In this document: positions 13,390-45,565 of the stretch, piece by piece
Position numbering within the stretch: the stretch's first letter is position 1
Layout of the letters: every line of letters starts with the position of its first letter
From: an uncultured Methanoregulaceae archaeon
GTDB lineage: Archaea > Halobacteriota > Methanomicrobia > Methanomicrobiales > Methanospirillaceae
DNA: 64,000 nt
NCBI GenBank assembly: GCA_963737635.1
Contig: CAVTTL010000001.1
Span: 1,600,001-1,664,000, forward strand
Reading direction: 5' to 3'
Translations under genes and position numbers: made by a program
Notes under the pieces: model-generated
The model's database searches: none
The model's input: only the letters and a program-made list of their open reading frames with translations
What the model was told of the DNA's origin: nothing

Positions 13390-13468
13390 GGTTCTGATAC
13401 GTTGGCGTTTGACAGGGTGTTTTTAGCGAGGTGAAAAATCAGCGATCAACCGTTAACGTATCAGGATC
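13390..13468 (+). repeat. ~78-bp imperfect palindromic element, copy A
   Basis: GGTTCTGATACGTTGGCG...CGTTAACGTATCAGGA; also at 21183, 45487 and (degenerate) 41334. Confidence 0.9.
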
Positions 13469-13560
13469 CATCTGCGGGACGTTTATATATTCGACATTAA
13501 AGTGTTCCGAGATGTCATTTCCGTTAAGTCCCGTTGATGCACCAGCACCACCGGAGTGCA

Positions 13561-14115
13561 TTATGGATGTTTCAGTGTCGGGTTCAGCTCAGACGCATTT
13601 GCGTATGCCGCATTGGCCTCTGCACTTCTTCCCAGCGCCTCCAGGGCATTTGCTTCATTGTAATATGCGATGGAACGCAGAGTGGGCAGGTTCCCGGGAG
13701 TGTTGATCGCCACATTTGCTGCGGCAATCGCCTCATCATAGCGGCCCAGTTCCACGAGGATCCCCGCCCGGTTGGCTTGAATAATGGGTATGAGAGAACT
13801 GACGTTATCTGCAAGTGCCGCATCGGCAGCGTTCAGTGCATCCTGATAATCCCCGGCGTTTGCCAGATCGACGCTCTCGGTGTACAGTGCACCGGCCGAA
13901 TGGAAGGATGCTGATGTACCTGTCGAGTTTGACGTTGGAATTCGTGTTGGTGTTGAGGTCTGAAGCACTGTCGTACAAACGATCTGTGGTGGAGGTGATG
14001 ATATTACCGTAGTTACCTGAGGGATAACGTTCGCAGATCCCGTGCGCGTACATCCAGCGGCACATAGTACCCCAATGCAGATAATGAGGAGGAGGAAGAC
14101 TACACGCCCCTGCAT
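13561..14115 (-). CDS. TPR-repeat lipoprotein-like protein
   Basis: Signal peptide with AAGC; TPR patterns NRAGILVELGRYDEA and NEANALEALGRSAEA. Confidence 0.8.
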   Translation of the reverse strand: MQGRVVFLLLIICIGVLCAAGCTRTGSANVIPQVTTVISSPPPQIVCTTVLQTSTPTRIPTSNSTGTSASFHSAGALYTESVDLANAGDYQDALNAADAALADNVSSLIPIIQANRAGILVELGRYDEAIAAANVAINTPGNLPTLRSIAYYNEANALEALGRSAEANAAYANASELNPTLKHP

Positions 14116-14272
14116 ATCTGCCTAATTATATCAGGATACGATATTATTTTCGATATTGTTTTCTAGGTTTTGCTGGATAAGGTTCTGTTAACTTGTTGAG
14201 GGATCGCATATTTTTTCAGAGGTGAGAAAGTTGATGATCCCAGTCCAAGTTACCAGAGCCATGTCAGCCAGT

Positions 14273-14455
14273 CTATCCAAGTATCTTTCCGATATCCGGA
14301 ATAAAAAACGTGACAACACCGGTAATCAGCACTACCACTCCTGCAATGGTAAAAAATAGACTCATCACAAAATATGCCGGTGCCCGGAAAATTACCCATC
14401 CTATACACACTAACGCCAGACCGACGACGATTGCTACCTGTCTCTTACAGACCAT
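14273..14455 (-). CDS. Small two-TM hypothetical protein
   Basis: 60-aa ORF with two hydrophobic stretches. Confidence 0.5.
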   Translation of the reverse strand: MVCKRQVAIVVGLALVCIGWVIFRAPAYFVMSLFFTIAGVVVLITGVVTFFIPDIGKILG

Positions 14456-14615
14456 AACTACGTGCGCCCCCTTCTTTAGAAAGGTCTAAGCGATGTGCTA
14501 GTATTAATATAAGCATACATTGATGCAACCGGGCAATTGCATTATTGCCAGGACTGCCAAAAAAATTCGAAAAATGAAAGAGAAGCGGCTAAAAAAAATT
14601 CCTATCGGAGAATAG

Positions 14616-15719
14616 TTACTCCCAGAATCCCTGGGAGGGAATACAGTCACCCGTAGGTGTACTATCAAACTCCTTCTCGAATCCCTTGTACCGGTAGTAG
14701 ACTATAGAAACCAGCCAGGAGAGCACGAAAAGGGCCACGATCCCAAAGCCTAAAGTCTCGAAGTCGAGAGCGTTCAACCCGTCCCAGAAGGACCCGGTCC
14801 AGTTGAATTCCGTAGAAAGAACCTGAATGAGTTCGATGCCACCGATGACGAATGCCACCATAACCGACATGATGGTGATTGTCAGGTTATAGTATACCTT
14901 GCGTATAGGGTGCTGGAAAGCCCAGCCATAGGCCAGACGCATACTTATACCGTCTGTTGAATCGGTAATAATCATACCACACGCAAAAGCAAACGGCAGG
15001 GTAAGAATCGCCCATAACGGTACATTGGACGCAACACCAGCACCAACGCTGACACCGATAAGCATAGTCTCGGTTGCTGTGTCAAAGCCCAGACCAAACA
15101 AGAATCCCACGACAAACATCTGGTAGGGTTTTTCAATTACCTTGAAGAGCCAGCCGAAGTGAGTGTTCATGAACCCCTTTTTGCTCAGCTCGCAGTCAAG
15201 ATCGGCCTGGCTGATCGTGCCATTCTTCAGGCCCTTGAAGATCTTATAGGTATCCATGACAATGATGACGTTGATAAATCCAATGATGAATAGGAATACT
15301 CCCGAGATTAGGGTACTGAGAGCATCAGTGCCAGTCTCAATAGCAGTGCCCAAGATGGCCTTTGCAGCGAAAACCAATGCAAGGACCATGAGGGCCACTA
15401 CCACCGAATGACCGATGGAGAACCACGTGCCCACCGTTATCGGGCGTTTGCCCTCCTGCAGCAACTTACGGGTGGTATTGTCGATGGCAGCAATGTGATC
15501 AGCGTCAACGCCATGGCGGAGACCAAGAACAAAGGACATGACCCCAAACCCTCCTAAAACGAGATAGATCTGTCCTATATAGGATGTCAGAATGAATGCA
15601 ATCACACTGAGAACCGTGAGGGTGACATAGAGCGCAAATATAGTGAGTTTTTCTTTTCGGTTCAGACTAATTATAGAATGATAAAAGCTTTGCTTTTTCT
15701 TGGCAATGTCTTCAACCAT
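14616..15719 (-). CDS. High-affinity Ni/Co permease, NiCoT (HoxN/NixA) family
   Basis: RHGVDADHI, FSIGHS and FGLGFDTATE signatures. Confidence 0.92.
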   Translation of the reverse strand: MVEDIAKKKQSFYHSIISLNRKEKLTIFALYVTLTVLSVIAFILTSYIGQIYLVLGGFGVMSFVLGLRHGVDADHIAAIDNTTRKLLQEGKRPITVGTWFSIGHSVVVALMVLALVFAAKAILGTAIETGTDALSTLISGVFLFIIGFINVIIVMDTYKIFKGLKNGTISQADLDCELSKKGFMNTHFGWLFKVIEKPYQMFVVGFLFGLGFDTATETMLIGVSVGAGVASNVPLWAILTLPFAFACGMIITDSTDGISMRLAYGWAFQHPIRKVYYNLTITIMSVMVAFVIGGIELIQVLSTEFNWTGSFWDGLNALDFETLGFGIVALFVLSWLVSIVYYRYKGFEKEFDSTPTGDCIPSQGFWE

Positions 15720-16070
15720 TTTTACTCAATCAATTTTACTTGATAAAAGTAAATAAAACCTTCTATTAAAACGGTAACTCATTCTTCGTGTCGATAATTT
15801 TAGAACATTTTGATAAAGAAACTTTTCAGGCATTGCGTCGGGACTTATATCGGCTCACAGGAGTAAAACCGGGAAAACTAAAGAACACAGAACCGTGGGG
15901 AAAATCTGGCGGGGCAGCCAGATATACAAAATACTCCGGGAAAAATAAACCGGTATGAGGATACTCCGAAAGAATAATCAGCTCCCGGTCGTCACTCTTT
16001 TTCCTGGTACATAAGACGCCGGAGCTGATGCAGACTGACTCAGGATACAAAGGGACCCCTACCCTTCCTT

Positions 16071-16850
16071 ATGCGGAGCAAGGGCGATGTCTCGCGCTTC
16101 CAGATTCTTGTAGAGATTGCCGAACGCCAGCCGGCTGTACGCCAGCTGGAGATTGCCGACAAGATTGGCATGACACCGCAGGCAGTCTCTGAATATATCC
16201 GCGATCTGGTTGACGAGGGTATGGTAGCCGTGAGCGGCCGGAGCAATTATGCGGTCACCAAGACCGGGATGGCATGGGTCATGGAGAATGCAGCTACCCT
16301 GGAATTATATGTCCGGCATATCCGGCGCGATATCATCAAGCATGTCTCGGTATGGACTGCAATTGCTGCCGATGACATGAATAAGGGGGATATCGCCGGT
16401 CTTTATATGAAGGACGGATATCTCTATGCGGGGAAGAACCCGACGTCGGCGACAGCAACGGTCTATGCGGATGCAAAGAAGAACGATGACGTGGGAATTT
16501 TCGATGTGAATGGGATAATCGAACATCAAGAGGGGGTTATCCACGTCTGCATAGTGCCCCGGATCCAGCGCGGGGGTTCAAAAAATGTCAGGAAGGATAA
16601 ACTCAAAAAGATCGTTGGAATGGCCGGGTTAACCGCGGCTGTCGGGGTCGAAGCATCAGTTGCACTGAAATCCATTGGCAGGACCCCCGATCTTTTTTTT
16701 GGATCGGCCGAAGGTGTCATCGATGCCGCATACCACGGAATCACCTGTGCGATTGTTATCGTTGACGAAGAGTCCCCGAATTTTGTCAAGAGACTGGAGA
16801 ACACCCCGCTTGAGCACAAGATCCACAATTTGATCATATCCGAAGATTAA
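16071..16850 (+). CDS. Winged-helix transcriptional regulator (archaeal COG1497-like)
   Basis: QLEIADKIGMTPQAVSEYIRDL HTH; divergent from the NiCoT gene. Confidence 0.75.
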   Translation: MRSKGDVSRFQILVEIAERQPAVRQLEIADKIGMTPQAVSEYIRDLVDEGMVAVSGRSNYAVTKTGMAWVMENAATLELYVRHIRRDIIKHVSVWTAIAADDMNKGDIAGLYMKDGYLYAGKNPTSATATVYADAKKNDDVGIFDVNGIIEHQEGVIHVCIVPRIQRGGSKNVRKDKLKKIVGMAGLTAAVGVEASVALKSIGRTPDLFFGSAEGVIDAAYHGITCAIVIVDEESPNFVKRLENTPLEHKIHNLIISED

Positions 16851-16985
16851 TGATCATCGTATAGTGACGAATGGTTCTGTCGGCTCTGTTAACTTGTTAG
16901 GGGACTATCAACTTTCCAATTCCTGATAACATATCCAATCCCTCACTAATGTAACAGAACCCAGGTCCCGTTATGTGACCCTGAA

Positions 16986-17012
16986 CCTTTGACCTGGCTT
17001 GGCTACCCTCGC
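16986..17012 (-). repeat. 27-nt 5' fragment of tRNA-Leu(GAG)
   Basis: Identical to 22920-22946. Confidence 0.8.
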
Positions 17013-17168
17013 CCTTACTTTTCTCACCGGGATATAGCCTACAAACCTTGATCAAGACCCTCAACCCTCCTAAAACCAGCGCGCTATTTCTCATAGAAGG
17101 TATCATTCCTCCTGCACATCAAAGATGAGATACGTGGCATTAATTACTGACGCGAATCGTCCTCGCTT

Positions 17169-18374
17169 TTACGTCTGCTTGAACATCTGCTTTGCCATAG
17201 CCACCCTCTCCTCAAAGCCGGGTCCTTCAAGTTCTTGCACAACGGATTCGAGCACTACCGGTATGTCGATGTGCTGGGGGCATTTTTCAGCACACTGCCC
17301 GCACTGGACGCACAGGGATGCAAACTCCGGCGTCCCGAGTGCGACAGCGCCGCCCAGCCGTGCAGCGTACATGAATTTTTCCCCATCGGGGTTGTCAGCC
17401 AGGGTCAGGTTGTTGTAGTGCTCGAAGCACAGCGGGATGTTGACTCCGGACGGGCAGGGCATACAGTATTGGCAGCCGGTACAGCCGACTTTCATCAGCT
17501 CGCGATATTTCTTCTCTACCCTTTTCACCAGCTGCAGTTCGGCTTTTGTCAGGGAACCCGGGTACGCCTCACCGGCTACCCGTAGGTTCTCCTCAATTTG
17601 TGTCTCCTCATTCATGCCGGAGAGGACAACCGTAACCTCCGGATGGTCCCAGATCCAGCGGAGCGCCCATTCTGCAGCGGTTCTCTTTTTCGGAGATTCG
17701 TCCCAGATCTTTTGCACCGCTGCAGGCACGGTCCTTGTCAGGTTCCCTCCCCGGAGGGGCTCCATGATGACGACGCCAAGACCTTTTGAGGCGGCATATT
17801 CCAGGCCGGCCGTACCTGCCTGGTTCTTCTCGTCTAAGTAGTTGTACTGGATCTGGCAGAAGTCCCAGTCATAGGCGTCCACGATCCGGCTGAAATCTGT
17901 TGCTGCACCGTGGAAGGAGAACCCGGTGTTCCTGATGCGACCGTCGGCTTTGGCTTTGGTGAGGAACTCGGTCACACCCAGATTCTTCACGGTATCCCAC
18001 AGTTCACCGACGAGCGCATGGACAAGGTAATAGTCAATGTGATCGGTCTGGAGCTTCTCCAGCTGGGCATTGAGGAACGTATCCATATCCTCACGCTTTT
18101 CGATAAGCCAGGAAGGGAGTTTTGTTGCGAGTTTTACTTTTTCGCGGTACCCGTCGGCAAGGGCACGGCCCACGAACGGCTCGCTCGCGCCCATGTGATA
18201 GGGCCAGGCGGTATCAACATAGTTTACGCCATGGTCGATTGCGTAACGTACCTGCTTCTTTGCCCGTTCTTCATCGATCGAGCCATCCTCTTTGACGGGG
18301 AGACGCATACACCCGAATCCCAGGATGGAAAGTTCGTCTCTGTTCTTTGGCATTTTCCTGTATAACATGGTCAT
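17169..18374 (-). CDS. Aldo/keto reductase with C-terminal 4Fe-4S domain (COG1453-like)
   Basis: LGFGCMRLP, DTAWPYH, CTGCQYCMPCP and CVQCGQCAEKCPQ. Confidence 0.9.
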   Translation of the reverse strand: MTMLYRKMPKNRDELSILGFGCMRLPVKEDGSIDEERAKKQVRYAIDHGVNYVDTAWPYHMGASEPFVGRALADGYREKVKLATKLPSWLIEKREDMDTFLNAQLEKLQTDHIDYYLVHALVGELWDTVKNLGVTEFLTKAKADGRIRNTGFSFHGAATDFSRIVDAYDWDFCQIQYNYLDEKNQAGTAGLEYAASKGLGVVIMEPLRGGNLTRTVPAAVQKIWDESPKKRTAAEWALRWIWDHPEVTVVLSGMNEETQIEENLRVAGEAYPGSLTKAELQLVKRVEKKYRELMKVGCTGCQYCMPCPSGVNIPLCFEHYNNLTLADNPDGEKFMYAARLGGAVALGTPEFASLCVQCGQCAEKCPQHIDIPVVLESVVQELEGPGFEERVAMAKQMFKQT

Positions 18375-18387
18375 TCACCTTTTTCGT

Positions 18388-18957
18388 TCAACCCGATTTG
18401 TTATTTTTTCCGACTATTCCGATGTCCTTCAGCCATCCGGCTACCTGATCATGTGCATTTTTAACATCGCCGCCCCGGATGGCAAGACCTTCAAGGACGG
18501 TTGATTGTGGGCATGTTTTTCTGATATCCGTAACAGTCCGACCCAAGCCGCTTCCCTCGTGCGTGCAGAACGGGATGATCGTTTTTCCAGAAAGATCATA
18601 TTCTTCCAGAAACGTAAACACCGGCATCGGCATTGTTCCCCACCAGTTGGGGTAACCGAGGAACACACCATCATGCGACGCCATGGTTTCCACATGGCCG
18701 GTAAGCTTCGGCCTGGCACTAGTGCGAAGTTCCTCTTTTGCGACATCGGTGGTTTCTGTATACTCTTTGGGATATGCCTTCACCGGTTCGATGTGAAACA
18801 GATCACCACCGGTCATTTCCTGGAGCATCTTTGCGACGACTTCAGTGTTGCCGACCGGGAGGTTTACGATATTCCCGCCGACATAATTGTTTCCTGCACG
18901 CGAAAAATACGCGATCAGGCATTTTGCATTATTTACGTTCATTTTCCCCCTTTTCAT
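18388..18957 (-). CDS. Flavodoxin
   Basis: YFSRAG..GNTE, LGYPNWWG and FCTHEGSG. Confidence 0.9.
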   Translation of the reverse strand: MKRGKMNVNNAKCLIAYFSRAGNNYVGGNIVNLPVGNTEVVAKMLQEMTGGDLFHIEPVKAYPKEYTETTDVAKEELRTSARPKLTGHVETMASHDGVFLGYPNWWGTMPMPVFTFLEEYDLSGKTIIPFCTHEGSGLGRTVTDIRKTCPQSTVLEGLAIRGGDVKNAHDQVAGWLKDIGIVGKNNKSG

Positions 18958-18976
18958 TCAACGGTGGTTTAATCCA

Positions 18977-19406
18977 TTAATCGATTCTCCGATATTCTTC
19001 ATCCGTTACGGGTTCCAGCCATTCCGCGTCCCCTTTTTGCGAATTAGGCATTATCGCAATATGAGTAAACCAGTTATCCGGCGCAGCACCATGCCAGTGT
19101 TTCACCTTGGGAGGAACTGCTACAACATCACCTTTTCGAATAACCTGCACTGGCTTACCCTCTTCCTGGGAATATCCTTTGCCGTTCGTGACTAACAGGA
19201 TCTGCCCGCCGGGATGTTTGTGCCAGTTGTTTCGTGCACCTGGGTTCAAACGTTACATTGCCAATGGGACAATGGAACGTGCTGTCATCCTTGACCAGCA
19301 TACCCAACCAAGCGGTTCCGATGAAATGCTCATTTGCGATCTGCTCTCCAGCAATCTTCGTCCCTTTGGGAAAGATTGCATCTTCAGGTAGTTTTTTTGC
19401 GGCCAT
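18977..19406 (-). CDS. Cupin domain protein; frameshift near 19245
   Basis: NVTFE/PGARNNWHKHPGGQIL..HWHGA. Confidence 0.8.
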
Positions 19407-19417
19407 ACTGTCCTCCT

Positions 19418-20054
19418 TTAATCCCGGATAAAGTTCGTGAAAACGGTTTCTTCCCGCACCGGGAGCTGTACACCGGCCTTAATACCTGCTTCCTTGCACT
19501 TCAGGAAGAACACCATGTTCCTTGCAAGGATGCGCATGGTCTGCAGGCCTTCTTTGTCCTTCTCCACATCTTCCGGCTTTACCCCGTGAACCATGTTCCA
19601 GTACCGGGACGAGACAACGGGCATCTCCGAGATGGTGAAATACTTGTTGAGCTGGTCAAAGGTGGCAGTCGTCCCTGCCCTCCGTGCGGACACCACTGCG
19701 GCTGCCGGTTTCAGGTAGAACACCTGCCGGCCTGCCAGCATGTTGGTATAAAAGGCGCGGTCCATGAAGGAGGTCATTGCACCGGATGCTGCGGCGATAA
19801 TGTACCGGAGACCCGAAGATGAATCCGTCAGCACCCTCCGCAAGATCGAGGAACTCGTTGACTGTGTCGTCAAACATGCAGCGCCTGTTCTTGGCACATG
19901 ACTTGCAGGCAGTACAGCCGGCAAGCGGCTTTATGCCGATCCAGAAAATTTCCGTTTCGATACCCTCTTTCTTCAGGGTTTTTGCAACTTCAGAAAGAGC
20001 AGTCCATGTGCAGCCCTTCTTATGTGGGCTTCCGTTTACGAGTAATACTTTCAT
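19418..20054 (-). CDS. Iron-sulfur flavoprotein / NADPH-dependent FMN reductase family; frameshift near 19800
   Basis: NGSPHKKG, CTACKSC..C, GSPVHY and SARRAG. Confidence 0.8.
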
Positions 20055-20056
20055 TT

Positions 20057-20509
20057 TTACACTCCTTTAACTTCTGAAACCTGAACGTCACCCTGCATAG
20101 TGCGGGGCAGTACGATTAACACTATTACTATCACAAGTGCGAAGGCAAGCATCACTGTACCGGCGGTGAGCGATGCCAGAGTGAAAAGTGCAATCCCGAT
20201 AACAAACATACGGCGGCGGCCAAGAATGTCCCCGGACCGTGCACCAAGAAGGAGCAAACCCCCAAACGTGAGCAGATAGGCATTCTGCACCCAGGAGAGT
20301 CCGGTATCTGTAAAGCCAAGAGTTGTGTGCATCTCCGGTAAGGCGGTAATGACGATGGCTATGTCGAGGACGATCATCAGATAGCCGGCAAGGATAAGCG
20401 CGAGAACCACATTGGGATGAGAACGGTTTTTGACCTCGGTAGCCGGGATAGCTGATGCTGTCTCCATCGATCTCTTCCACGTCACAAACCGTGCTGCACC
20501 ATCTTTCAT
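20057..20509 (-). pseudogene. Internally truncated DHA2 (EmrB/QacA) MFS transporter
   Basis: LDIAIVITALP, WVQNAYLL.FGG and GDILGRRR, but only 150 aa. Confidence 0.7.
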
Positions 20510-20630
20510 TGATTTCTTCCTTCACGTGATTCAGACAGTATCGTCCGTGTTACTATAGTATATATCAAGAATGTATGACATAAATAGTGGGTACAAACAA
20601 AGATGTGACATACTTACAGGTTTGATACTA

Positions 20631-20984
20631 ATGGAAACCACGCCGAAAAAATACAAATACAGCTGGCCCATTGAGGCAACCCTGGATGTGATCGGGGGTA
20701 AATGGAAACCGCTGGTCATCTACACGCTTAAGGACGGGACGCTGCGGTTCAACCAGATCGTCGACAAGGTCCAGCCAAGGATCACCCAGAGGATGCTGAC
20801 AAAAGAACTTCGTGAACTTGAACGAGATGGTCTCGTTATTAGAAAAGTTTACGCCCAGGTACCGCCGAAAGTGGAATATTCACTCACGGAAACAGGATTG
20901 TCCCTCATCCCTATTCTTGACGAGCTCTGTGACTGGGGATCCAAACATATGGGGGACGATATTGAGTTCAAGTGTGAAGAATAA
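20631..20984 (+). CDS. HxlR family transcriptional regulator
   Basis: [25 protein letters not shown] and PPKVEYSLT. Confidence 0.92.
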
Positions 20985-21030
20985 AGAATATAGATGGGAG
21001 CGTACCCGGTGCCGGACCGAGTGAACAAGC

Positions 21031-21180
21031 CGGACGCGAGAACGTGTTTATTCATCCCGCTCTCCTGAAGGTACTTTCCGAGCCGTGAATATGTCGAAAA
21101 TGGTTGTTTTTTTCGACACGTTTTGGTGATGTGTCGATCCGTTCGACATATTTTCCGTGCTCGCGATCAGCTGTTTTTGA
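21031..21180 (+). repeat. Copy of the second Fic gene's 3' end plus downstream TGTCGA/TCGACA hairpins
   Basis: Near-identical to 24193-24344. Confidence 0.9.
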
Positions 21181-21182
21181 GA

Positions 21183-21259
21183 GTCTGATACGTTGGCGGT
21201 TGACAGGGTGTTTTTAGCGAGGTGAAAAATCAGCGATCAACCGTTAACGTATCAGGACC
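21183..21259 (+). repeat. Palindromic element, copy B
   Basis: Near-identical to 13390-13468. Confidence 0.9.
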
Positions 21260-21440
21260 GGCACGCGTATGAAGATCCTCTTTGATGAGGAGTGCCACCA
21301 GTTCATTGATTGAATTTTGTTCCATATGGTTCATTTTTGAACCAATCCACACTAAGGACTGTGGTTTGGAGAGTCCAGAAACAGAAAACGTGCGAGGGAT
21401 GGAAGCGTACCCAAGAACTCCTACGAGATCAGGCCCTCAA
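21260..21440. repeat. 181-bp direct repeat of the MNT 5' end plus the 3' half of tRNA-Leu(GAG) (att-like)
   Basis: Matches 22732-22912; identity stops exactly at the edge of the anticodon loop. Confidence 0.9.
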
Positions 21441-21515
21441 TATTCTAAAATATAGCGCACTCGTTGTTTTGGCAGAATTGGATACGATCTCAATACGAGA
21501 GGCAGTACAGATTTT

Positions 21516-21743
21516 TCAAACTGCGACTGTTTCGACACGGACACGGCTGATAATAACCTCATCTTCTACCGGTATCTCTTCATGATCTTCCTTCAAACAG
21601 GAGAGGTGAAGTCCGATTGCCTCTTTGGTATTCGCGATCGTCTCTTCCACGGTCTCACCCTGCGAGAAACATCCCGGGAGAGCCGGAACTTCGGCCCAGA
21701 ATCCGCCCTCTTCTGCCTTATGGATCAGGATTGTATATTCCAT
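21516..21743 (-). CDS. hicB: HicB family antitoxin; no adjacent hicA seen
   Basis: EEGGFWAEVPALPGCFSQGETVEE. Confidence 0.85.
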   Translation of the reverse strand: MEYTILIHKAEEGGFWAEVPALPGCFSQGETVEETIANTKEAIGLHLSCLKEDHEEIPVEDEVIISRVRVETVAV

Positions 21744-21806
21744 ATAAACCTCTTACCATAATTGTTCAAATTCCTTGTCGGAAAATCCTGCCTTCTTTAT
21801 CAATGA

Positions 21807-22277: not shown

Positions 22278-22806
22278 AGTACACCTCAACGCCCCTGATG
22301 ATAACATGGTCTTTCATTATTTCCCGGATGAGCAGGTCTCTTGTGTCAAACACCCCGATCTTCACACTCAGTGACGAGTGCTTCTGCTCAAGTTGTCTCT
22401 TCTTTTGTGAATCAGATGTTTCGATGTAGATATCGATATCACTTCCCTTTGTTGCAAGGCCTTTTGCGTAGCTTCCATACAGGATGGCAAGAGGGACCTC
22501 CGGCATGTCTTGGATAGCCTGAAAAACTCCCCGCAAAACCGGGTATGTGCTCACGATTGAGGACAGTTTATAGATTTCAGCAATCATTGCAGCATTCCTC
22601 CCCTCAATCGTTCTCTTGAGAGTAAAAACTTTGTTTTTCCCTTCAAAACGGAAATCAACGATGTTGTTTTCCGTGAGATCGCGGAGTTTTCGCAGGACCG
22701 TGGCATGATTGCTCCTGAGCTTATCGGCAATGGCACGCGTATGAAGATCCTCTTTGATGAGGAGTGCCACGATTTCATTGATTAAATTTTGTTCCATATG
22801 GTTCAT
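22243..22806 (-). CDS. HTH + minimal nucleotidyltransferase (MNT) antitoxin
   Basis: N-terminal HTH; LYGSYAKG..SDIDIYI. Confidence 0.85.
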   Translation of the reverse strand: MNHMEQNLINEIVALLIKEDLHTRAIADKLRSNHATVLRKLRDLTENNIVDFRFEGKNKVFTLKRTIEGRNAAMIAEIYKLSSIVSTYPVLRGVFQAIQDMPEVPLAILYGSYAKGLATKGSDIDIYIETSDSQKKRQLEQKHSSLSVKIGVFDTRDLLIREIMKDHVIIRGVEVYFDKNGFFKETA

Positions 22807-22862
22807 TTTTGAACCAATCTACAATAAAGATTGTGGTTTGGAGAGTCCAGAAACAGAAAACG

Positions 22863-22946
22863 TGCGAAGGATGGAAGCGTACCCAAGAACTCCTACGAGA
22901 TCAGGCCCTCAACCTAACGCCTTTGACCTGGCTTGGCTACCCTCGC
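22863..22946 (-). tRNA. tRNA-Leu(GAG), probably a pseudo-tRNA with degenerate T arm
   Basis: GCGAGGG acceptor, D arm GCCAAGCCAGGTCAAAGGC, anticodon loop TTGAGGG, long variable arm; T loop reads TACGCTT instead of TTCRANT. Confidence 0.7.
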
Positions 22947-23158
22947 CCATTACTTTCATCTTTCCTACGCCGTGAGATACAGAGTACAAACCTTATTCAA
23001 AACTCTCAGACCATAACGAGATTCTGCGCTGGGCTCTCGGGAAGATAAGAATTCTGGGGAATACTATAATTTTGCCCAAACACAATGTGTTATTGAAACA
23101 AGCAGTGCCGGGTCTCACCGACTGTGGGGATCCAAAACGAGTATTGGCGGAGCAGCTT

Positions 23159-24250
23159 ATGGCATTTGATCGACGCGTACCCTACAACGACCTTCCGCCT
23201 CTTCCTCCAGCCATCGATTTGGAATCAAAAACAATACTCAAAAAATGCGTCAGCGCCCACCGGGCTCTTGCGTCACTAAAATATGCCGGGAACCTGATTC
23301 CCAATCAGGCTATTCTCATCAATGCCATTCCCTTGCAGGAAGCGAAAGCAAGTTCCGAGATCGAGAATATTGTGACAACAGGTGATCAGCTTTACCAAGC
23401 CTCGGTATTGCCCGGGACCGTAATCGATCCGCAGACAAAAGAGGTTCTTCGCTACCGAACGGCCCTCCGCCGAGGCTATGACCGTCTAAAGACGCGATCC
23501 ATCTCAATGAGTCTGCTCCGGGAAGTTTGTGAAGCCCTCCTCGGCCACGAAGTGCAGTACCGCTCATCATCCGGGACGCAGATAACGAACAAGACGATAG
23601 GCGAAGTCGTTTACACACCCCCGGATGGTGACGAGATCCTGCGGGAAAAACTGGATCAATTGGAGAACTTCATTCACCTTCGCGATGAAAATCTGCTCGA
23701 TCCGCTTGTCCGTCTGGCTCTCATCCATTACCAATTCGAAGCTATCCACCCATTCGAGGACGGCAATGGCAGGACAGGACGGATCCTCAACATCCTTTAT
23801 CTTGTCGAACAAGGACTTCTCGATATTCCCGTCCTATATCTCAGCCGGTACATCATCAACCACAAGGGCGATTATTACACGTTGTTGCGGGCCGTCACGG
23901 AGGAGCAGGAATGGGATGCGTGGGTACAATTCATGCTTTCGGCAGTTGAGGAGACGTCGGCGGGAACATCAAAGCGCGTCCTTGCAATCCGCAAACTCCT
24001 TGACGAAACGACGGCCCTCTGCCGCGAAAATCTTCCTCGCCAGATCTATTCCCGGGAGCTTGTCGAGATGATCTTCGTCCAGCCCTATAGTAAAATCTCA
24101 TACGTGGTAGATGCGGGGATCGCCAAACGGCAGACTGCCGCCGAATATCTGCAAAAGCTTGAAGAGATTGGCGTACTGGAATCGCGGAAAGTCGGACGCG
24201 AGAAAGTGTTTATTCATCCCGCTCTCTTGAAGTTACTTTCCGAGCCGTGA
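23159..24250 (+). CDS. Fic family adenylyltransferase (SoFic-like)
   Basis: PYNDLPPLPP, EAKASSEIENI and HPFEDGNGRTGR. Confidence 0.92.
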   Translation: MAFDRRVPYNDLPPLPPAIDLESKTILKKCVSAHRALASLKYAGNLIPNQAILINAIPLQEAKASSEIENIVTTGDQLYQASVLPGTVIDPQTKEVLRYRTALRRGYDRLKTRSISMSLLREVCEALLGHEVQYRSSSGTQITNKTIGEVVYTPPDGDEILREKLDQLENFIHLRDENLLDPLVRLALIHYQFEAIHPFEDGNGRTGRILNILYLVEQGLLDIPVLYLSRYIINHKGDYYTLLRAVTEEQEWDAWVQFMLSAVEETSAGTSKRVLAIRKLLDETTALCRENLPRQIYSRELVEMIFVQPYSKISYVVDAGIAKRQTAAEYLQKLEEIGVLESRKVGREKVFIHPALLKLLSEP

Positions 24251-24402
24251 ATATATGTCGAAAATGTTTGTTTTTTTCGACACGTTTTGGTGATATGTCG
24301 ATCCGTTCGACATATTGTCCGTGCTCGCGATCAGCTGTTTTTGATACTACGGATAAACCGGTTCAGGAAAAAGGGCTCTATTAAGTCCAATAAACGGAAA
24401 AA

Positions 24403-24485
24403 TGCGAGGGATGGGAGTTGAACCCATGAATCCCTGCGGAACTGGATCTTAAGTCCAGCCGAGTTGGCCACTTTCGTACCCTCGC
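24403..24485 (-). tRNA. tRNA-Leu(TAA)
   Basis: Cloverleaf GCGAGGG..CTGGA-CTTAAGA-TCCAG, long variable arm, ATGGG-TTCAACT-CCCAT, CCCTCGC-A. Confidence 0.92.
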
Positions 24486-24609
24486 GCTCTATAGTATTTC
24501 GTGTGTACCATAAAAAGAATCGTGGCCTGAGAATCACGGATCTGCACAACCCATTCCCTACAAGTACCACGCCTTTTATGCATTGCCGGTACCATACTGT
24601 ATCCGACAG

Positions 24610-32673: not shown

Positions 32674-32681
32674 CGTTTTTT

Positions 32682-34949: not shown

Positions 34950-34997
34950 TCTATGGTTGCCGTGAGCTGTAACGTATAGATCCGGCAGGTGGTTCAC

Positions 34998-35729: not shown

Positions 35730-35818
35730 ACAGCTCTCCCTTCCTTTTTCCAGTAATCTTCTCAAAACCCGGGGCTGGTCAATCCCGACAAAACGGGCGG
35801 AAGCACGATGTGGTCCTC

Positions 35819-36629: not shown

Positions 36630-36764
36630 ATCCTAAAACGTCTCTTCATCCGGGCTAAAATATGCTTTGACTCATTGGTTTGTCAAACATATGTCAATTG
36701 TCTACAAGGTTATTTACTAAAACTTTTTTACTTATATTGTCCAATATGCAATGGGTGTTAACTT

Positions 36765-37286: not shown

Positions 37287-37314
37287 CGATAGTAGATAAG
37301 GTGGGTTTCAAATT

Positions 37315-38595: not shown

Positions 38596-39344
38596 GATAC
38601 GCCGGTATTGACCTCGGATCGCGTACGATCAAGCTTGCCGTGCTGGAAAACGGCAACCTCGTTTTTTCCCGCAAGGTTGTTACCTCTCACGATCCCCTTC
38701 TGACGGCGCGGGACCTTATGGCAGGCGCGGCGTTTGACCGCATCACCGCGACCGGCTACGGGCGGCACCTGATCAAAGGGCATCTTACCTGTCCGGTGAT
38801 CAGCGAGATATCGGCCTTTGTCCTTGGCGCCCGTTTTTTTTCGACTGACTGCGATGCCATTCTCGATATCGGCGGCCAAGACACCAAGGCAATTTCCCTG
38901 GACGACCACGGCAATTTATGCAAATTCGAGATGAACGACCGGTGTGCCGCAGGGACCGGCCGGTTTCTTGAGGTCATGGCGACCGTGCTCGGTTTTACGC
39001 TGGAAGAATTCTCGGCGGCGGCTCTCTCTGCCAAACGAGCAGAAAAGATCAACAGTATGTGCACCGTGTTTGCGGAATCTGAGATTGTCTCTCTCATTTC
39101 CCAAGGGGCGGACCGGAATGACGTTGCGCTCGGTATCCACAAAGCCATTGTAAGCCGTTCAGCGGGGCTCCTCAAACGGGTTGCACCAACGGGAAAGATA
39201 TTTTTTGCCGGTGGTGTTGCGTTGAACGACTGCGTGAGATGTCTTCTCGAAAAAGAGATGGGTATGCCGGTTTTTGTACCGCCCGATCCGCAAATGGTCG
39301 GTGCGATTGGCGCCGCGTTGAGCGCATCAGAAGACAAACGGTAG
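38592..39344 (+). CDS. ATP-dependent activase (BadF/BcrAD/DCCP-R family)
   Basis: GIDLGS, ATGYGR, DIGGQDTK, NDRCAAGTG and CTVFAESE. Confidence 0.92.
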   Translation: MRYAGIDLGSRTIKLAVLENGNLVFSRKVVTSHDPLLTARDLMAGAAFDRITATGYGRHLIKGHLTCPVISEISAFVLGARFFSTDCDAILDIGGQDTKAISLDDHGNLCKFEMNDRCAAGTGRFLEVMATVLGFTLEEFSAAALSAKRAEKINSMCTVFAESEIVSLISQGADRNDVALGIHKAIVSRSAGLLKRVAPTGKIFFAGGVALNDCVRCLLEKEMGMPVFVPPDPQMVGAIGAALSASEDKR

Positions 39345-39388
39345 TTGAACAAATGAGAAACAAATAAAATTTTTTTTAGAAAACAGGC

Positions 39389-39679
39389 TCAATAATATCC
39401 GTATTTTTTATGAGCCTGTTCAATCGAAAGAATTTCTTGGACAATTACTCGTTTTTCTTCTTTATCGATATCATAGTACACCGTGTAACTTCGGGAAATG
39501 TGAAGACGGTAGATAACAACACCCCCCTTTAAAACCATTTTTTCCTTATCCCCACGTGTCCCCGGATAAGGCTCCTGTTCCAGTCTATCCAGTGCGGTTT
39601 TGATGATCCGACGTGTTTTGTCTGGCAGACGGTTTATATCGTCAGATAGTCCCTGCCAGAGGATCAGTTTAAAGGTCAA
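39389..39679 (-). CDS. RelE/ParE family toxin
   Basis: LEQEPYPG..YRLHISRSYTVYYDID; overlaps the antitoxin stop. Confidence 0.75.
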   Translation of the reverse strand: MTFKLILWQGLSDDINRLPDKTRRIIKTALDRLEQEPYPGTRGDKEKMVLKGGVVIYRLHISRSYTVYYDIDKEEKRVIVQEILSIEQAHKKYGYY

Positions 39680-39882
39680 TCCTTAATCTCCGAAAGAGGG
39701 ACATATTCGTCAGCCTTGCGGCTGTGCCACATCTTAACATCTTCTTCAAGTCGCCTCTTTTTACGCTCCTCGATCATATCTGCGAGGAGCTCCGCATAGG
39801 TCTGACCTGCCGATCGCATCTCTGAAAGCTCCTTCCACACCGGTTCAGTAACCGGTATCCGCTTTACCGCTTGCATGATCAT
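39676..39882 (-). CDS. Cognate antitoxin (RHH-like)
   Basis: KRIPVT..GQTYAELL..EYVPLSEI. Confidence 0.7.
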   Translation of the reverse strand: MIMQAVKRIPVTEPVWKELSEMRSAGQTYAELLADMIEERKKRRLEEDVKMWHSRKADEYVPLSEIKD

Positions 39883-39952
39883 ATTGTAAGTGCTGTAAAT
39901 ATGAATAATTAATGGTCTGTTTGTACCTGCGCCTGCTTAATAGCCTTCAGCC

Positions 39953-41194
39953 TTAAAAGAACAATACTCTCTGGTGGTTCGCAACAATACCTGTTGGTGG
40001 GTAGAAGAGAAGGTTTCCGAGATCTGCAATACCGATGGGGATGACACCGGTCAGTTTCGGATTTTTACGTATGTTCCTCGCGGCAAGGGATGGGGTGAAT
40101 GCGAAAAACTGGAGGTTTTCGCTGCCTGATGCAGCGTCTATGGCTGCCTGCAGGTTGAACCATTCCGGCGTGTTGTTGCCCGTCTGCACCCCGGAAAGGA
40201 CATACACGCCGTCTTCAATGAAGATAACGCGGGTCTGGATCTCCTTTGCTGCACACGCGATGGCAAATGCAAGGGCGCCGGACGTATATTCCGATCCATA
40301 CGGGTGCCGGGTGACAAGAATAGTCACCGGAGGGACACGCCACTTCTCATCAAAACCAAGCGTAGGCCGTATAGTCTCTTTTTTCACGGAGATAATGGCA
40401 CAATTCTCAGAAAGGATGATATGGTTGCTCCGGAACTGTGATGCAATATCCTTTAATTCCCGGATCTTCACCGGCCTGATAGTACACGCCGGAACAAGTC
40501 CCCCTTTCCCGTCGCTGGCGCAGTATCCCCGTTTTGCTGCGCACCGGGCACTGGCGGTAATCTGGCCGTGAAGGCCCCGTTTTCCTGCTTTGTCCTCAAG
40601 GTTTTTCAGTTCATCGCCGATATTTTCTGCATCCAGTGGGTTCTGGCCCTGGTGCCCGATATGGATCCCGTCAAGGTAACAGTAGAGATCCCACGAGGTG
40701 TGGGATTCAAGCGCTGCATCCAGGCAATGAAGCAGGATTTCAGATGAACGGTTCATATACGGGGAGGCCATATGGAGATACCCGATGGTGCTTGGGATCG
40801 GCTGTTCATGCTGGCGGGCATATTTCATGACGTCTTTCCAGAATGACGGCTTCCCGTTGAGTGCGAGACTGTTATGGGTGATCACCAGGTCGGGATTTTT
40901 CATCTTCAGGCGTTCGGCCGTAATGCCCCGGAGCGCGAGTTCTTCCTGATCGCAGACAATTTTTATCGAAGGCAGGGAAAGGAAATTTTCCCATATTTCG
41001 ATCATCTGCGGGTTCTGGAGACTATACAAGGCGTCACCAGTCAGAAAAAAGACAAATGCCGCGTCGCGTTCCTTGCTGGTATGGAGGAAACTCTGGGGGT
41101 TAAGGTTTAAAAAATAAAATTTCAGCAGTTCTTCTAGCCAGCCAAGCCGCTCCGGGGTAAGAGAGTCCCTCAAAAGAAAAAAATGTGCGGTCAT
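39953..41194 (-). CDS. Triple DsrE/DsrF-like domain protein
   Basis: FFLTGDALY..LRG; YLDGIH..RCAAKRG; PYGSE..FIEDGVY..SLAAR. Confidence 0.7.
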   Translation of the reverse strand: MTAHFFLLRDSLTPERLGWLEELLKFYFLNLNPQSFLHTSKERDAAFVFFLTGDALYSLQNPQMIEIWENFLSLPSIKIVCDQEELALRGITAERLKMKNPDLVITHNSLALNGKPSFWKDVMKYARQHEQPIPSTIGYLHMASPYMNRSSEILLHCLDAALESHTSWDLYCYLDGIHIGHQGQNPLDAENIGDELKNLEDKAGKRGLHGQITASARCAAKRGYCASDGKGGLVPACTIRPVKIRELKDIASQFRSNHIILSENCAIISVKKETIRPTLGFDEKWRVPPVTILVTRHPYGSEYTSGALAFAIACAAKEIQTRVIFIEDGVYVLSGVQTGNNTPEWFNLQAAIDAASGSENLQFFAFTPSLAARNIRKNPKLTGVIPIGIADLGNLLFYPPTGIVANHQRVLFF

Positions 41195-41333
41195 GCAGGG
41201 ATACTGATGATTTGACTATATCGGCATATATCTATTATGATATCCCGACCATTTTTATTGATCATTCTCAGTATTACTGGGTAATTTGGCCGAAATTTCT
41301 CTTACCTCCTTTCCCAACCTCCATAGTCACTGA

Positions 41334-41431
41334 GGTTCTGATATATTTGTGATTGAGGGGGGGATTTTTTTGGAGAAGAAAAATCAGAGAGTAACCGTCA
41401 ATGTACCAGCATCTGCCAATGTATCAGAACC
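41334..41431 (+). repeat. Palindromic element, degenerate copy D
   Basis: GGTTCTGATATATT..GAAAAATCAG..AACCGTCAATGTA..AATGTATCAGAACC. Confidence 0.6.
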
Positions 41432-41565
41432 CCTCTGCCGTACCAAAAACAGAATATTTATTTTCTCTGAACTGAACCATTACATCATCTGAACAGGCGG
41501 AATCTTTACGCGGACATCGTCCTGCGTGTCAATCCAGAACTCCCGTGTCCGGAATCAGGCGATCC

Positions 41566-43221
41566 ATGCGGAAAAAACCTGCAACATCAGTGGAAAGGTC
41601 AAAAAAAAATCAATGTTCGCGGTCAGAAGCCGACAATCAGTTCAGGTTTGCGAATACCTACAACCGCAGTCTTCTGGAGGCGAGCCTTGACCCTCTTGTC
41701 ACCATCAGCCCGGAAGGAACAATAAACGATGTAAATGAAGCTGCTGTGAGAGCAACCGGTTTTTCCCGGAAGGAACTCATTGGCACCGATTTTTCGGATT
41801 ATTTCACCGAGCCTGAGAAAGCAAAAGTGGGGTACGAGACGGTATTCCGGGACGGGTCAGTAACCGATTACGAACTCCAGATCCGACACCGGAACGGTAC
41901 CCTTACCCACGTTCTCTACAATGCATCAGTCTTCAAAGACAATGCCGGAAACATTGCCGGTGTCTTTGCGGCTGCCCGTGATATTACCGAACGCAAGAAA
42001 GCAGAAGAAGAGATCAAGCGGGCGAGCACATACAACCGAAGCCTTCTCGAAGCAAGTCTTGACCCTCTCGTCACCATCAGCCCGAATGGAACGATCAGCG
42101 ATGTAAATGAAGCGGCTGTGAGAGCAACCGGTTTTTCCCGGAAGGAACTCATCGGCACCGATTTTTCGAATTATTTCACCGAGCCTGAGAAAGCAAAGGC
42201 AGGGTACGAGACGGTATTCCGAGATGGCTCCGTAACCGACTACAGCCTTGAGATCCGGCACCGGAACGGGAAGATAACCCCCGTTTTGTACAATGCCACC
42301 GTCTACCGGGATGCACAGGGAAAGGTCACCGGAGTCTTTGCCGCCGCACGGGACATCACTGAGCGGAAACGCGCTGAAGACGCCCTGCTGAAAGCCTATA
42401 ACGAGCTGGACGACCGTGTCAAAGAGCGGACCATCGAACTGCAGGAAGCCAATGCCAGCCTTGAAAAGGAGATCGCGGAACGCAAGGCAACCGCTGATGA
42501 ACTCAGAAAGAAGAGCAAGGAACTCGAACGGTCAAACCTCGAACTCCAGCAGTTTGCCTATATCGCCTCCCACGATTTGCAGGAACCCTTAAGGGCGATC
42601 TCAGGCTTCACCGAGTTGCTGGAGAAGCGATATAAAGGCCAGATCGATGAACGGGCCGACAAGTACATTAAATTCATCGTCGACGGGACCAGGCAGATGA
42701 ACCAGGTCATCCATGACCTGCTGGCGTACTCACGAGTACAGACCAAAGCTCATGAGTTTGAATTCATCGACGTGAACCAGTCCCTTAAACAGGCACTGCT
42801 CAACCTCCAGACATCGATACGGGATGAAAATGCAGTCATCAGGACAGATACCCTCCCGAGCGTTTACGCCGACGGTATCCAGATCACCCAGCTTTTCCAG
42901 AACCTGATCGGCAATGCCCTCAAATTCCAGAAGCCAGGCAATCAGCCGGAGATCAGCATATCCGTGCACAAGTCCGGCGATATGTGGAAATTCTCGGTGA
43001 CGGACAACGGAATCGGTATCGACCCCCAGTATTCCGAACGGATCTTCAAAATCTTCCAGCGCCTGCATGCAAAAGGTGAGTACGAGGGGACCGGCATCGG
43101 ACTTGCAATCTGCAAGAGAATCGTCGAACGACACGGGGGAGAGATCATGGTCCGGTCAAAACCGGGCGCAGGTTCGACCTTCTCCTTTACCCTGCCTTCC
43201 AGAAAGGAGGAAAAACCATGA
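41566..43221 (+). CDS. PAS-PAS sensor histidine kinase
   Basis: Two near-identical PAS domains; [19 protein letters not shown] and GTGIGL. Confidence 0.93.
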
Positions 43222-43685
43222 ATGGATCAAGCGTATCATCGAATTTACTCCGCCCGGTAGAGATTCTGCTGGTCGAAGACAGCCCTGCTGATGTCGCATT
43301 GACGCAGGAGGCCCTGATGGACAGCAAACTGAAAAACAACCTGCACGTGGTGAGCGACGGCGAAGCCGCAATGACGTTCCTCAGGCGCTCCGGCACCTAT
43401 GCATCGGCACCACGACCGGATCTCATCCTTCTTGATCTCAACCTCCCCAAAAAGAACGGCCGGGAGGTACTCGCAGAGCTCAAGTCGGATCCCTCCCTTC
43501 GGCTCATCCCGGTCGTTATTATGACCGTATCACAGGATGAGCAGGACATCTTAGAATCGTACAAACTCAATGCGAACTGCTACATACGGAAACCGGTGAA
43601 CTTCGAAGAATTTATCCAGATTGTGAAATCTATCGAGCATTTCTGGTTCTCTATCGTAACCCTTCCACCCGCTCCAGGTACTTGA
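43218..43685 (+). CDS. Response regulator (Rcp1-like)
   Basis: [17 protein letters not shown] and YIRKP. Confidence 0.92.
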
Positions 43686-43690
43686 GAACG

Positions 43691-45466
43691 ATGAAGATTC
43701 TGACCATCGAAGATAACCTTGCTGATGTTGAGATCCTCCGAGAGCTCCTGATCGACACTCATGTTTCATCGTGCGAACTGGTAAGCGCGCGAACCTTGGC
43801 TGAGGGCATGTCGCTTTTTGCCGGTGGAGATATTGACTTCGTTATTCTCGATCTTGGGTTGCCGGATAGCCAGGGAATCGATACCCTCCGTTCGGTCCGG
43901 ACCCGATTTCCCTTCCTGCCCATCGTAGTCCTCACCGGATTCGACGACGATGAGACCGGGATACTCGCTGTCCGTGAAGGAGCACAGGATTACCTCGTGA
44001 AGGGGCAGATTACCAGTCCCTCGCTCATGCGCTCCATCCGGTATGCACATGAGCGGAAGCGGACCGAGCAGGAACTCGTCCGGAAGAATAACGATCTCGA
44101 TATGATGAACGAGGAACTCCGGCAGAATCTCGACGAACTTACGAAAAAAGAACAGGAACTGCGGGAGAGCGAGGGCCAGTTGAAAAAAGGGAACGAAAAA
44201 CTTGCACTTCTTGCCGAATCTGCACAGGTTCTCCTCACAAGCGGAACGCCAGAACACATAGTCCAGACCATAAGCGAAAAGATCATGCAATACCTGGATT
44301 GCCAGGTGTTTTTCAACTACATCATCGAGGAAGGAAAAAAGAACATGCAGCTGAATGCCTATGCCGGAATCCCTGAGGCAACCGCACGGGAGATCCGGAG
44401 ACTCGATTTTGGCATCGCTGTATGCGGATGTGTGGCAAGGGACGAGGTACCTATCATCGCCGAAGATATCTCCCACACACCGGATGTACGTACCGATCTT
44501 GTCCATTCGTTTGGTATTACTGCCTATGCATGCCATCCGCTCATCTATCAGGGCCGCACTATCGGGACACTCTCCTTTGGTACATCCACCCGGCCGCGAT
44601 TTTCAGAAGAAGATATTGAGTTTATACGGGCAATCACCGATCTTGTTGCCACCGCCATGGCGCGAAAAAAAGTAGAACGGGAATTAATCCGGAAAAATGA
44701 AGATCTCAGCGCCGCCTATGAAAAAATCGCCTCAACGGGAGAGGAACTCCGGCAGAACGTTGAAGAACTCAGCCTCCGCGAGCGGGAACTGATCAAAAGC
44801 GAAGCTGATCTTAAGGAAGCCCTTTCAGAAAAAGAGGTTCTCCTATCCGAGATCCATCACCGGGTCAAGAACAACCTGACCGCGTTTATCTCGTTACTCA
44901 GCCTTGAAGGGTCCTATGAGGATTCTGAAGGAGGAAGGGCACTCCGGGAGGATCTCCAGAACCGGGCCCGGAGCATGGCTCTAATCCACGAGACCCTGTA
45001 CCGGACCGGGAAATTCTCTGAAGTGAATATGGAGGCCTACCTTACCCCCCTCGTCGGCCAGATTGCCGCCTCGTATACGAAAGATTCGAAAGTCCTGACG
45101 ATCGTTGATGCCCGAAGTATGGTTCTTGATCTCTCCCGGGCCACCACAGCAGGCCTGATCGTCAATGAACTGGTGACAAACTCGTTCAAATACGCATTCC
45201 CTCCGGAGTTCGATTGTATGGCGGTACGGGGTGGGCCTCCTACAATCCGGGTCTCATTTTCTCATAATGATGGGATTGACGTATTGTCTGTTGCTGATAA
45301 CGGACATGGATTACCTTTGGGATTCGATCCCTTTGCAACACAATCGCTCGGTCTCAAGCTGGTGAACTTCCTCGCCCGGCACCAGCTCCGGGCGGATATC
45401 GATATCCGGGAGGATAGAGGCACTGAGTTTATCTTCCGGCTGAAAAATGACGAAGGTAACGCGTGA
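43691..45466 (+). CDS. Hybrid REC-GAF-HisKA_2 histidine kinase
   Basis: LDLGLPDSQG, GAF VCGCVA, EIHHRVKNN and SLGLKLV. Confidence 0.9.
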   Translation: MKILTIEDNLADVEILRELLIDTHVSSCELVSARTLAEGMSLFAGGDIDFVILDLGLPDSQGIDTLRSVRTRFPFLPIVVLTGFDDDETGILAVREGAQDYLVKGQITSPSLMRSIRYAHERKRTEQELVRKNNDLDMMNEELRQNLDELTKKEQELRESEGQLKKGNEKLALLAESAQVLLTSGTPEHIVQTISEKIMQYLDCQVFFNYIIEEGKKNMQLNAYAGIPEATAREIRRLDFGIAVCGCVARDEVPIIAEDISHTPDVRTDLVHSFGITAYACHPLIYQGRTIGTLSFGTSTRPRFSEEDIEFIRAITDLVATAMARKKVERELIRKNEDLSAAYEKIASTGEELRQNVEELSLRERELIKSEADLKEALSEKEVLLSEIHHRVKNNLTAFISLLSLEGSYEDSEGGRALREDLQNRARSMALIHETLYRTGKFSEVNMEAYLTPLVGQIAASYTKDSKVLTIVDARSMVLDLSRATTAGLIVNELVTNSFKYAFPPEFDCMAVRGGPPTIRVSFSHNDGIDVLSVADNGHGLPLGFDPFATQSLGLKLVNFLARHQLRADIDIREDRGTEFIFRLKNDEGNA

Positions 45467-45486
45467 CCGAGGAAATAATTCAGATT

Positions 45487-45565
45487 GGTTCTGATACGTT
45501 GGCGGTTGATTTGTCTTTTTTGCCGAGGTAAAAGATCAGCGATCAACTGCGAACGTATCGGGACC
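45487..45565 (+). repeat. Palindromic element, copy C
   Basis: GGTTCTGATACGTTGGCGGTTGAT..ATCAACTGCGAACGTATCGGGACC. Confidence 0.88.

Follow-up and report, generated by a model that had tools for sequence, protein, structure and literature searches.

The window studied here, that is, the whole 64,000-nt stretch of DNA that was analysed, belongs to a Methanoregula genome of 2.46 Mb in four contigs (90% complete), and it contains several dispersed copies of a palindromic element of about 80 bp. [quoted passage not shown] The preliminary description of the window had likened the element to integron attC sites or to repetitive extragenic palindromic (REP)/HUH sites. This analogy was not supported, because DDE transposons of the same genome carry these arms as their terminal inverted repeats and no Y1/HUH transposase was found; since nothing suitable turned up among HUH enzymes, integron integrases or Rfam families, we class the element as MITE-like rather than as an attC or REP site. 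The same description had raised a match to a known insertion sequence (IS) end as the opposing outcome, and such a match is what we obtained. The identity of the element as miniature IS6-like transposon ends is well supported; the manner in which the short copies spread, and their causing of breakpoints, we infer.

When a 23-nt arm was compared with the whole genome, allowing up to five mismatches, 22 matches were obtained, 18 of which lay within the 24 known copies. The other four comprised the two inverted termini of a 5.2-kb element, one arm close to another transposase gene, and a nested partial arm. The 5.2-kb transposon (L040, G000:C1:1060413-1065642) encodes a 411-aa DDE transposase and is flanked on either side by CCTCTAGA, an 8-bp direct repeat, and the second transposon (L155, C1:425105-429100) has inverted repeats of about 55 bp and the 8-bp duplication GACTAACG. 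The 411-aa transposase matched Pfam DDE_Tnp_IS240 at 6e-14, together with SWIM and rve_3, and its best NCBIfam match was transpos_IS6, covering model positions 2-201 of 202. Three copies of the transposase scored 52.7, 57.2, and 48.2 bits with DDE_Tnp_IS240 (cut-off 27), and the genome carries four full-length copies and two fragments of it. In relatives, 15 loci around transposase genes yielded 12 candidate end pairs, nine with perfect 8-bp duplications, one with a 6/8 match, and two with none; including both transposons of the present genome (2/2), perfect 8-bp duplications were found at 11 of 14 full-length transposons. These are 2.6-8.0 kb long and carry cargo genes, and their transposases, of 393-411 aa, have a SWIM/zinc N-terminal region. 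According to the accessible text of two articles, the target duplications of the IS6/IS26 family are 8 bp (Varani et al., PMC7986276) and its end consensus is GGTTCTGTTGCAAA, with G1, G2, and G7 conserved (Harmer and Hall, PMC6807381).

The correspondence between the short elements and the transposons extends to their subfamilies. Transposon ends read GGTTCTG(T/G/A)T(G/A)CG, with a motif of about 18 nt present twice in each end, and the arms of the short elements start GGTTCTG(A/T/G)T(A/G)CG; the three short families in the genome correspond to three transposon end types. Within the arms, positions 8 and 10 vary jointly on both sides (A-T in eight and T-A in five copies at position 8, A-T in eight and G-C in five at position 10), and these are the positions that separate the transposon subfamilies. 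In the alignment of 17 copies, 81% of cells pair, compared to 36-44% when the partner is slid. Since the covariation at positions 8 and 10 matches the subfamily differences, it follows the specificity of the transposase and gives no evidence of an RNA. We propose that the two arms, each of about 24 nt, are the left and right terminal inverted repeats, the sites that the transposase must recognise, separated by a family-specific loop of about 30 nt. The appearance of a long hairpin results from two transposon ends facing each other.

Four copies in the window had been listed in the preliminary description, and all four are real. With a covariance model built on 17 good copies and a hand-drawn structure, copy A (13390-13468, plus strand) scored 85.2 bits (E 1e-18), copy B (21181-21259, plus strand) 83.1 bits, copy C (45487-45565, plus strand) 86.8 bits, and the degenerate copy D (41334-41431, plus strand), with about 19 additional bases in its 3' arm, 61.4 bits. 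Copy B begins with GAG instead of GGT, so that its start had previously been placed at 21183. The list was incomplete, however, as the window holds three more elements. One is a fifth, degenerate copy of the same family 1 (10844-10917, minus strand; nhmmer E 6.7e-08), and two belong to a sister family, family 2, which has ends GGTTCTG...CAGAGCC as in family 1 and different inner arms (14181-14260, plus strand, 31.4 bits; 16882-16961, minus strand, 27.9 bits). Family-2 copies are also present in the relatives G115, G077, and G044, and a homology block of G077 terminates at 16964, beside the second family-2 element. In a repeat search, copies A and B were 99% identical, differing at one of 74 aligned bases, and A and C were 80% identical over 74 nt. 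The CGAGGT loop and the motif ATCAGCGATCAAC, described before as common to A, B, and C, are indeed present in all three. On the plus strand, the folds of A (-33.8 kcal/mol, z -4.8), B (-34.2 kcal/mol, z -4.5), and C (-44.4 kcal/mol, z -6.3, the best of all four) were each equalled by 0 of 200 shuffles, while that of D was weak (-30.6 kcal/mol, z -1.9, equalled by 9 of 200). The minus strands folded worse, with -20.4 kcal/mol for A and -26.6 kcal/mol for C.

Iterated nhmmer searches of the whole genome detected 24 family loci on both strands, and the covariance model yielded 40 matches, with the palindrome's two strands both counted, which were reduced to about 30 loci. RNAalifold on all 24 copies returned no structure, because the degenerate copies spoil the consensus. 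The short copies are 74-99 bp long, and 27 of 30 lie outside called open reading frames (ORFs), while ORFs make up 86% of the contig. The copies are clustered: 18 of 30 have another copy within 10 kb (random mean 6.4), and 23 of 30 fall in the last third of the contig. By crude ORF calls tallied by hand, the neighbouring genes of 24 copies are convergent in six cases, divergent in five, and tandem in 13 (four sense and nine antisense). Over 77 copies, the information content drops from about 1.4 bits to about 0 precisely at the GG and CC termini, and the 12 nt on either flank hold zero information, that is, no target preference was seen. [quoted passage not shown]

In a sample of 100 genomes from the genus, which are related rather than independent and many of which are incomplete assemblies, the element model matched 41 (E <= 1e-6), compared to 0 of 16 genomes of other genera in the order, and the transposase was present in 20. 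Both were found in 18 genomes, transposase fragments only in two, the element only in 23, and neither in 57. A pattern scan with one genome per species gave 40 loci, 27 of them in Methanoregula, Methanoregulaceae or Methanomicrobiales records, and all 14 loci that scored above 40 bits with the model belong to these 27. A Bathyarchaeota record (L077/L085) gave a weak model match of 31.9 bits, with paired arms about 600 bp apart, which hints at related elements in another archaeal phylum.

Copies A, B, and C stand at breakpoints of homology. Pfam confirmed the gene context given before, with Fic, TPR, NiCoT, aldo-keto reductase, and flavodoxin genes between A and B. Repeat analysis likewise bore out the statements that a Fic remnant is cut off at A and that B sits between two duplicated remnants. 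The remnant of a Fic 3' end at 13315-13389 (plus strand) is 93% identical to 24159-24233 and stops at the first base of A, whereas the intact Fic gene runs on beyond this point. To the left of B, a truncated duplicate of a Fic 3' end with downstream DNA (20997-21180, plus strand) matches 24159-24344 and ends at the element; to its right, a truncated duplicate of a nucleotidyltransferase 5' end with upstream DNA (21260-21440, plus strand) starts at the element and matches 22733-22912 with 94% identity. The duplicates flanking B thus derive from loci 1.5-3 kb away. Between D and C lie two histidine kinase genes and a response regulator gene, and C is followed by arsC, acr3, a small ferredoxin gene, a CdhD-like gene, and arsR. 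Following the earlier labelling, we take the small ferredoxin gene to be a putative hgcB and the CdhD-like gene to be a putative hgcA. The kinase-gene homology of relatives stops at 45476-45487, the latter being the first base of C, and the arsC-flank homology of G080 starts at 45568, 3 bp past the last base of C; across that point, G080 has another gene. Taken together, homology ends 0-3 bp from an element terminus at five junctions (left of A and on both sides of B and of C), which supports the proposal that copies stand where paralogous or orthologous homology breaks off.

At a larger scale, copy D belongs to an insertion, whose left edge is about 50 bp away from it. The homologues of 39955-41245 and of 49970-50890 are separated by 63-146 bp in G115 and G077, so the roughly 8.7 kb at 41283-49960 (edges from alignments) is an insertion in the present genome, containing D, the two-component genes, C, and arsC-acr3-hgcB-hgcA-arsR; it is absent from G115 and G077 at this place. 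At the right edge of the insertion, there is no element. The ars-hgc genes of G115 and G077 are located elsewhere in those genomes. In G044 and G115, arsC is followed by an element, an AhpC gene, and another element, and the AhpC gene of the present genome adjoins a decayed transposon end, with 91% identity compared to 84% for arsC. A family-3 copy divides two blocks whose counterparts in G077 are separated by about 950 kb. Further element-rich regions consist of mosaic blocks of 0.3-2 kb whose homologues are scattered in relatives, and the family as a whole clusters in such mosaic accessory regions, in line with the previously proposed link to accessory modules.

Considering these positions, we propose a mechanism in which the transposase would act in trans on the short copies. 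An IS6/IS26-type enzyme would join the element ends to new DNA, through cointegrate or conservative reactions, or copies would recombine with one another, and the flanks would be exchanged. Such an exchange would leave no target duplication and would put copies at module junctions, for example at the insertion with the two-component and ars-hgcAB genes. The miniatures might even be working recombination anchors, whose exact ends an IS6-like transposase would join to new DNA without target duplication, by analogy with the conservative mode of IS26; this proposal is tentative, and we consider it unlikely. If it were true, single genes and small modules, such as the ars-hgcAB mercury-methylation cluster and defence genes, would be shuffled between copies in Methanoregula, an archaeal counterpart, based on miniature elements, of the IS26 system by which bacterial resistance regions are put together.

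Several results weigh against our interpretation, and the most prominent is the lack of target duplications around the short copies. Of the 30 copies in the present genome, none has a target duplication, the best match being 6/8 over 25 offsets. None of 60 copies in relatives exceeded 4/8 (mean 1.9/8, control 2.35/8), and the longest words common to both flanks were the same as in the control. The arms in relatives retain 75% Watson-Crick pairs, and we estimate that decay alone should leave duplications of about 6/8. Cross-copy 8-mer matches between flanks, which are expected of replicative deletion or inversion, were found for three pairs, compared to a control mean of 1.66, and are at chance level. 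In contigs of four soil-metagenome runs from three studies, D and C were bridged with identical flanks, and the circular excision junctions that had been suggested were sought and not found, although rare variants are invisible in contigs. With regard to the parents, the 411-aa transposase scored 114.7 bits with transpos_IS6, below the curated cut-off of 125, and the transposons are larger and cargo-bearing, unlike the classic IS6 members of 0.8 kb. Element-bearing genomes without detectable transposase numbered 23, including the complete genome G020 and the element-rich G080. Lastly, some copies adjoin housekeeping-type genes, such as those for thymidylate kinase and NAD synthase, and although some block edges in the mosaic regions coincide with an element, others do not, nor is every copy at a detectable edge.

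Duplications of other lengths or at other offsets were not found around the short copies. Copy L129 has a possible 6-8 bp repeat; there are also AATAAT words beside copy C and, at C1:1793223, a T-rich 9-mer, both apparently chance matches in low-complexity sequence. A search for insertion polymorphism revealed no clean empty site among species that are only 70-85% identical; the sites proved to be breakpoints rather than simple insertions.

These observations could also be explained by passive copies, that is, old miniature remnants that survived in the intergenic DNA of variable islands where the breakpoints arose from unrelated events, such as integrase insertions at tRNA genes or ordinary homologous recombination. 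Time and selection, and no special chemistry, would then have preserved the arms and randomised the flanks. We regard this explanation as somewhat unlikely. In its favour, the region between A and B is rich in other marks of rearrangement (a tRNA-Leu gene at 24403-24485, tRNA-like halves, and the Fic and nucleotidyltransferase duplicates), mosaic blocks of 0.3-2 kb occur even with no element at the edge, the right edge of the 8.7-kb insertion has no element, and neither polymorphism nor excision was seen in other samples. The retention of the element in the 23 genomes without a transposase points the same way. Against it, homology ends 0-3 bp from the termini at five junctions, and the total absence of duplications despite well-kept arms is hard to reach by decay alone. 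In addition, the two arms change in concert along the lines of the transposon subfamilies, a pattern that favours ongoing selection for recognition by the transposase over passive survival.

The strand bias of the hairpin raises the question of whether a single strand has a role of its own. The preliminary description had argued for a single-stranded fold from the excess of G-T wobbles. This argument holds for the present genome, where G-T pairs outnumber A-C pairs by 80 to 26 and 16 of 17 copies form the stronger fold on the plus strand (mean -28.0 vs. -19.9 kcal/mol), but the excess is not significant in relatives: for 60 copies whose orientation was set solely by the loop, the outer-arm counts are 106 and 91 (p 0.32). 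The plus strand of 39 of these 60 copies folds better (-30.6 vs. -28.4 kcal/mol, p 0.012, the copies not being independent). The single-strand signal is therefore real in this genome and weak across the family. A hairpin retained because it serves the host, be it as transcript 3' end, terminator, stabiliser or small RNA, with its transposon-end origin secondary, would account for this fold advantage, for the T-runs on both strands of the hairpin, and for the location of A and C directly downstream of convergent genes. We consider this improbable, given the mixed orientation and context among the 24 copies, the insignificant wobble excess in relatives, and the absence of an Rfam match: at the gathering score, a scan of the window returned tRNA-Leu only, and in a permissive scan of copy C the best hit had E 0.33 and 18 bits, so that none of the known families looked for fits. 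A simple role as a terminator or 3' untranslated region cannot account for copies between divergent genes or in mixed orientations, and terminator use could be secondary at convergent sites such as C. No RNA dataset was present among the 17 sequencing runs listed.

The same strand bias in an imperfect palindrome, the lack of target duplications, as in HUH elements, and the same-orientation copies that sometimes bracket a single gene (TPR in the window, AhpC in G044, and TetR in G015) would also suit a single-stranded recombination site of the attC, REP/RAYT (REP-associated tyrosine transposase) or IS200/IS605 type, on which a tyrosine or HUH recombinase would act. The candidate enzymes argue strongly against it. 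The Y1/HUH transposase family PF01797 had 0 matches in this genome, at its 90% completeness, while the same search matched 6 of 14 control genomes. As stated in the preliminary description, the window has no recombinase gene: none of its 69 ORFs scanned for recombinase or transposase domains contained one, and the only two tyrosine recombinases of the genome (C1:273900 and C1:1459787) are far from any element cluster. The core motif of integron attC sites is RYYYAAC...GTTRRRY. The element ends, compared with it by eye, are of the IS6 type, GGTTCTG...CAGAACC, and the arms equal the ends of DDE transposons. We therefore give a single-stranded recombination site a very small chance. A TnpB-like gene at C1:31764 is unrelated to the element.

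As miniature derivatives of IS6/IS26-like transposons, the elements can be compared with several known systems. ISfinder holds two MITEs of the IS6/IS26 family, MITEBth2 and MITEHarch3, of 227 and 336 bp, as reported in the accessible text of PMC7986276 and PMC6807381. The present elements resemble them in being non-coding and multi-copy, in having IS6-type inverted repeats from GGTTCTG, and in presumably depending on a transposase encoded elsewhere. They differ in being only about 80 bp long, in occurring, as far as searched, in Methanoregula and Methanoregulaceae only, in lacking 8-bp duplications in all 90 copies, and in having parents of 2.6-8 kb with cargo instead of insertion sequences of 0.8 kb. 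By the same accessible text, classic IS6/IS26 elements are simple, of about 0.8 kb, with a single transposase gene of 213-254 aa, and just one cargo-carrying member of the family is noted in the review. IS6-type MITEs are known but rare, and the listed ones are longer; the present family is unusual in its size, in its complete lack of duplications, and in its cargo-bearing parents stacked end to end.

In behaviour, the elements also recall the pseudo-compound transposons and translocatable units of IS26, whose mechanism we take from the accessible part of PMC7986276 and from abstracts. Both have GG..G7 ends and 8-bp duplications, with copies that often lack duplications and stand beside truncated genes, and in both, copies in direct repeat bracket accessory modules. 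Here, by contrast, the bracketing units are gene-less archaeal miniatures, with no cointegrate, circle or conservative reaction observed; the transposase has the extra N-terminal SWIM/zinc region, and each transposon end has the motif of about 18 nt twice. Integron attC sites are likewise imperfect palindromes of similar size, able to separate single-gene units in one orientation. The present elements, in contrast, lie on both strands, with no integron integrase nearby and no conserved core sites, and their arms are identical to DDE ends. Palindromes of the REP/RAYT and IS200/IS605 types share the dispersed, intergenic distribution and the lack of target duplications; unlike in those systems, the genome has no HUH transposase, and the arms are DDE terminal inverted repeats, not subterminal hairpins. 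In the literature we found no description of this element family; the accessible text of PMC13343696 and PMC11602168 is silent on it, and the supplementary MITE lists of PMC11602168 could contain it.

With this identification, a puzzling palindrome becomes open to testing, as the putative miniature substrate of a methanogen transposase. The occurrence of perfect duplications at 11 of 14 transposons and at 0 of 90 miniatures is a concrete mechanistic puzzle for transposon biology. MITE finders that demand target duplications would miss the element family. Parts of Methanoregula genomes are mosaics of small modules separated by such elements, and the insertion carrying ars-hgcAB bears on the movement of mercury-methylation genes.

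Further observations concern the full-length transposons. The cargo of the 5.2-kb transposon consists of a radical SAM gene and a SocA/Panacea gene, and that of the transposon at 425105-429100 of a gene with a GmrSD-like nuclease domain together with a RiboL-PSP HEPN gene; both sets resemble modules for defence or of the toxin-antitoxin kind. At L171 (G081:C1:2141000-2160000, 4654-14586), L167, L168, L170, and L173, full-length transposons of the family follow one another at a spacing of exactly 8 bp, end to end. In G081, one 8-mer is common to three consecutive transposon junctions, as if newcomers insert into the 8 bp beside a resident end. An AhpC/TSA gene (G000:C1:2349790-2350387; L045 2430-3023) is joined to the same transposon end in the present genome, in G044, at two places in G115, and in G077, with an identity of 84-91% among these genomes (84% for G077), compared to 84% for the neighbouring arsC block.

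Duplications were also seen around the short elements and in the genes of the window. At L030 (G015:C83:31048-34127), the order thymidylate kinase, element, TetR gene, element, TetR gene represents a tandem duplication of gene and element. The window contains two diverged Fic genes (11908-13389 and 23072-24250) whose last 75 nt are 93% identical, and 20997-21180 is a third copy of this 3' end. A tRNA-like sequence at 22857-22950 (minus strand) was called by neither ARAGORN nor Rfam; stretches 85-98% identical to it recur frequently in relatives, and partial halves of it are found at 21372-21440 and 16986-17023. The tRNA-like halves near the tRNA-Leu gene suggest old integration sites. Inside the first histidine kinase gene, two direct repeats of 300 nt at 41627-42298 are 83% identical and are probably duplicated PAS domains.

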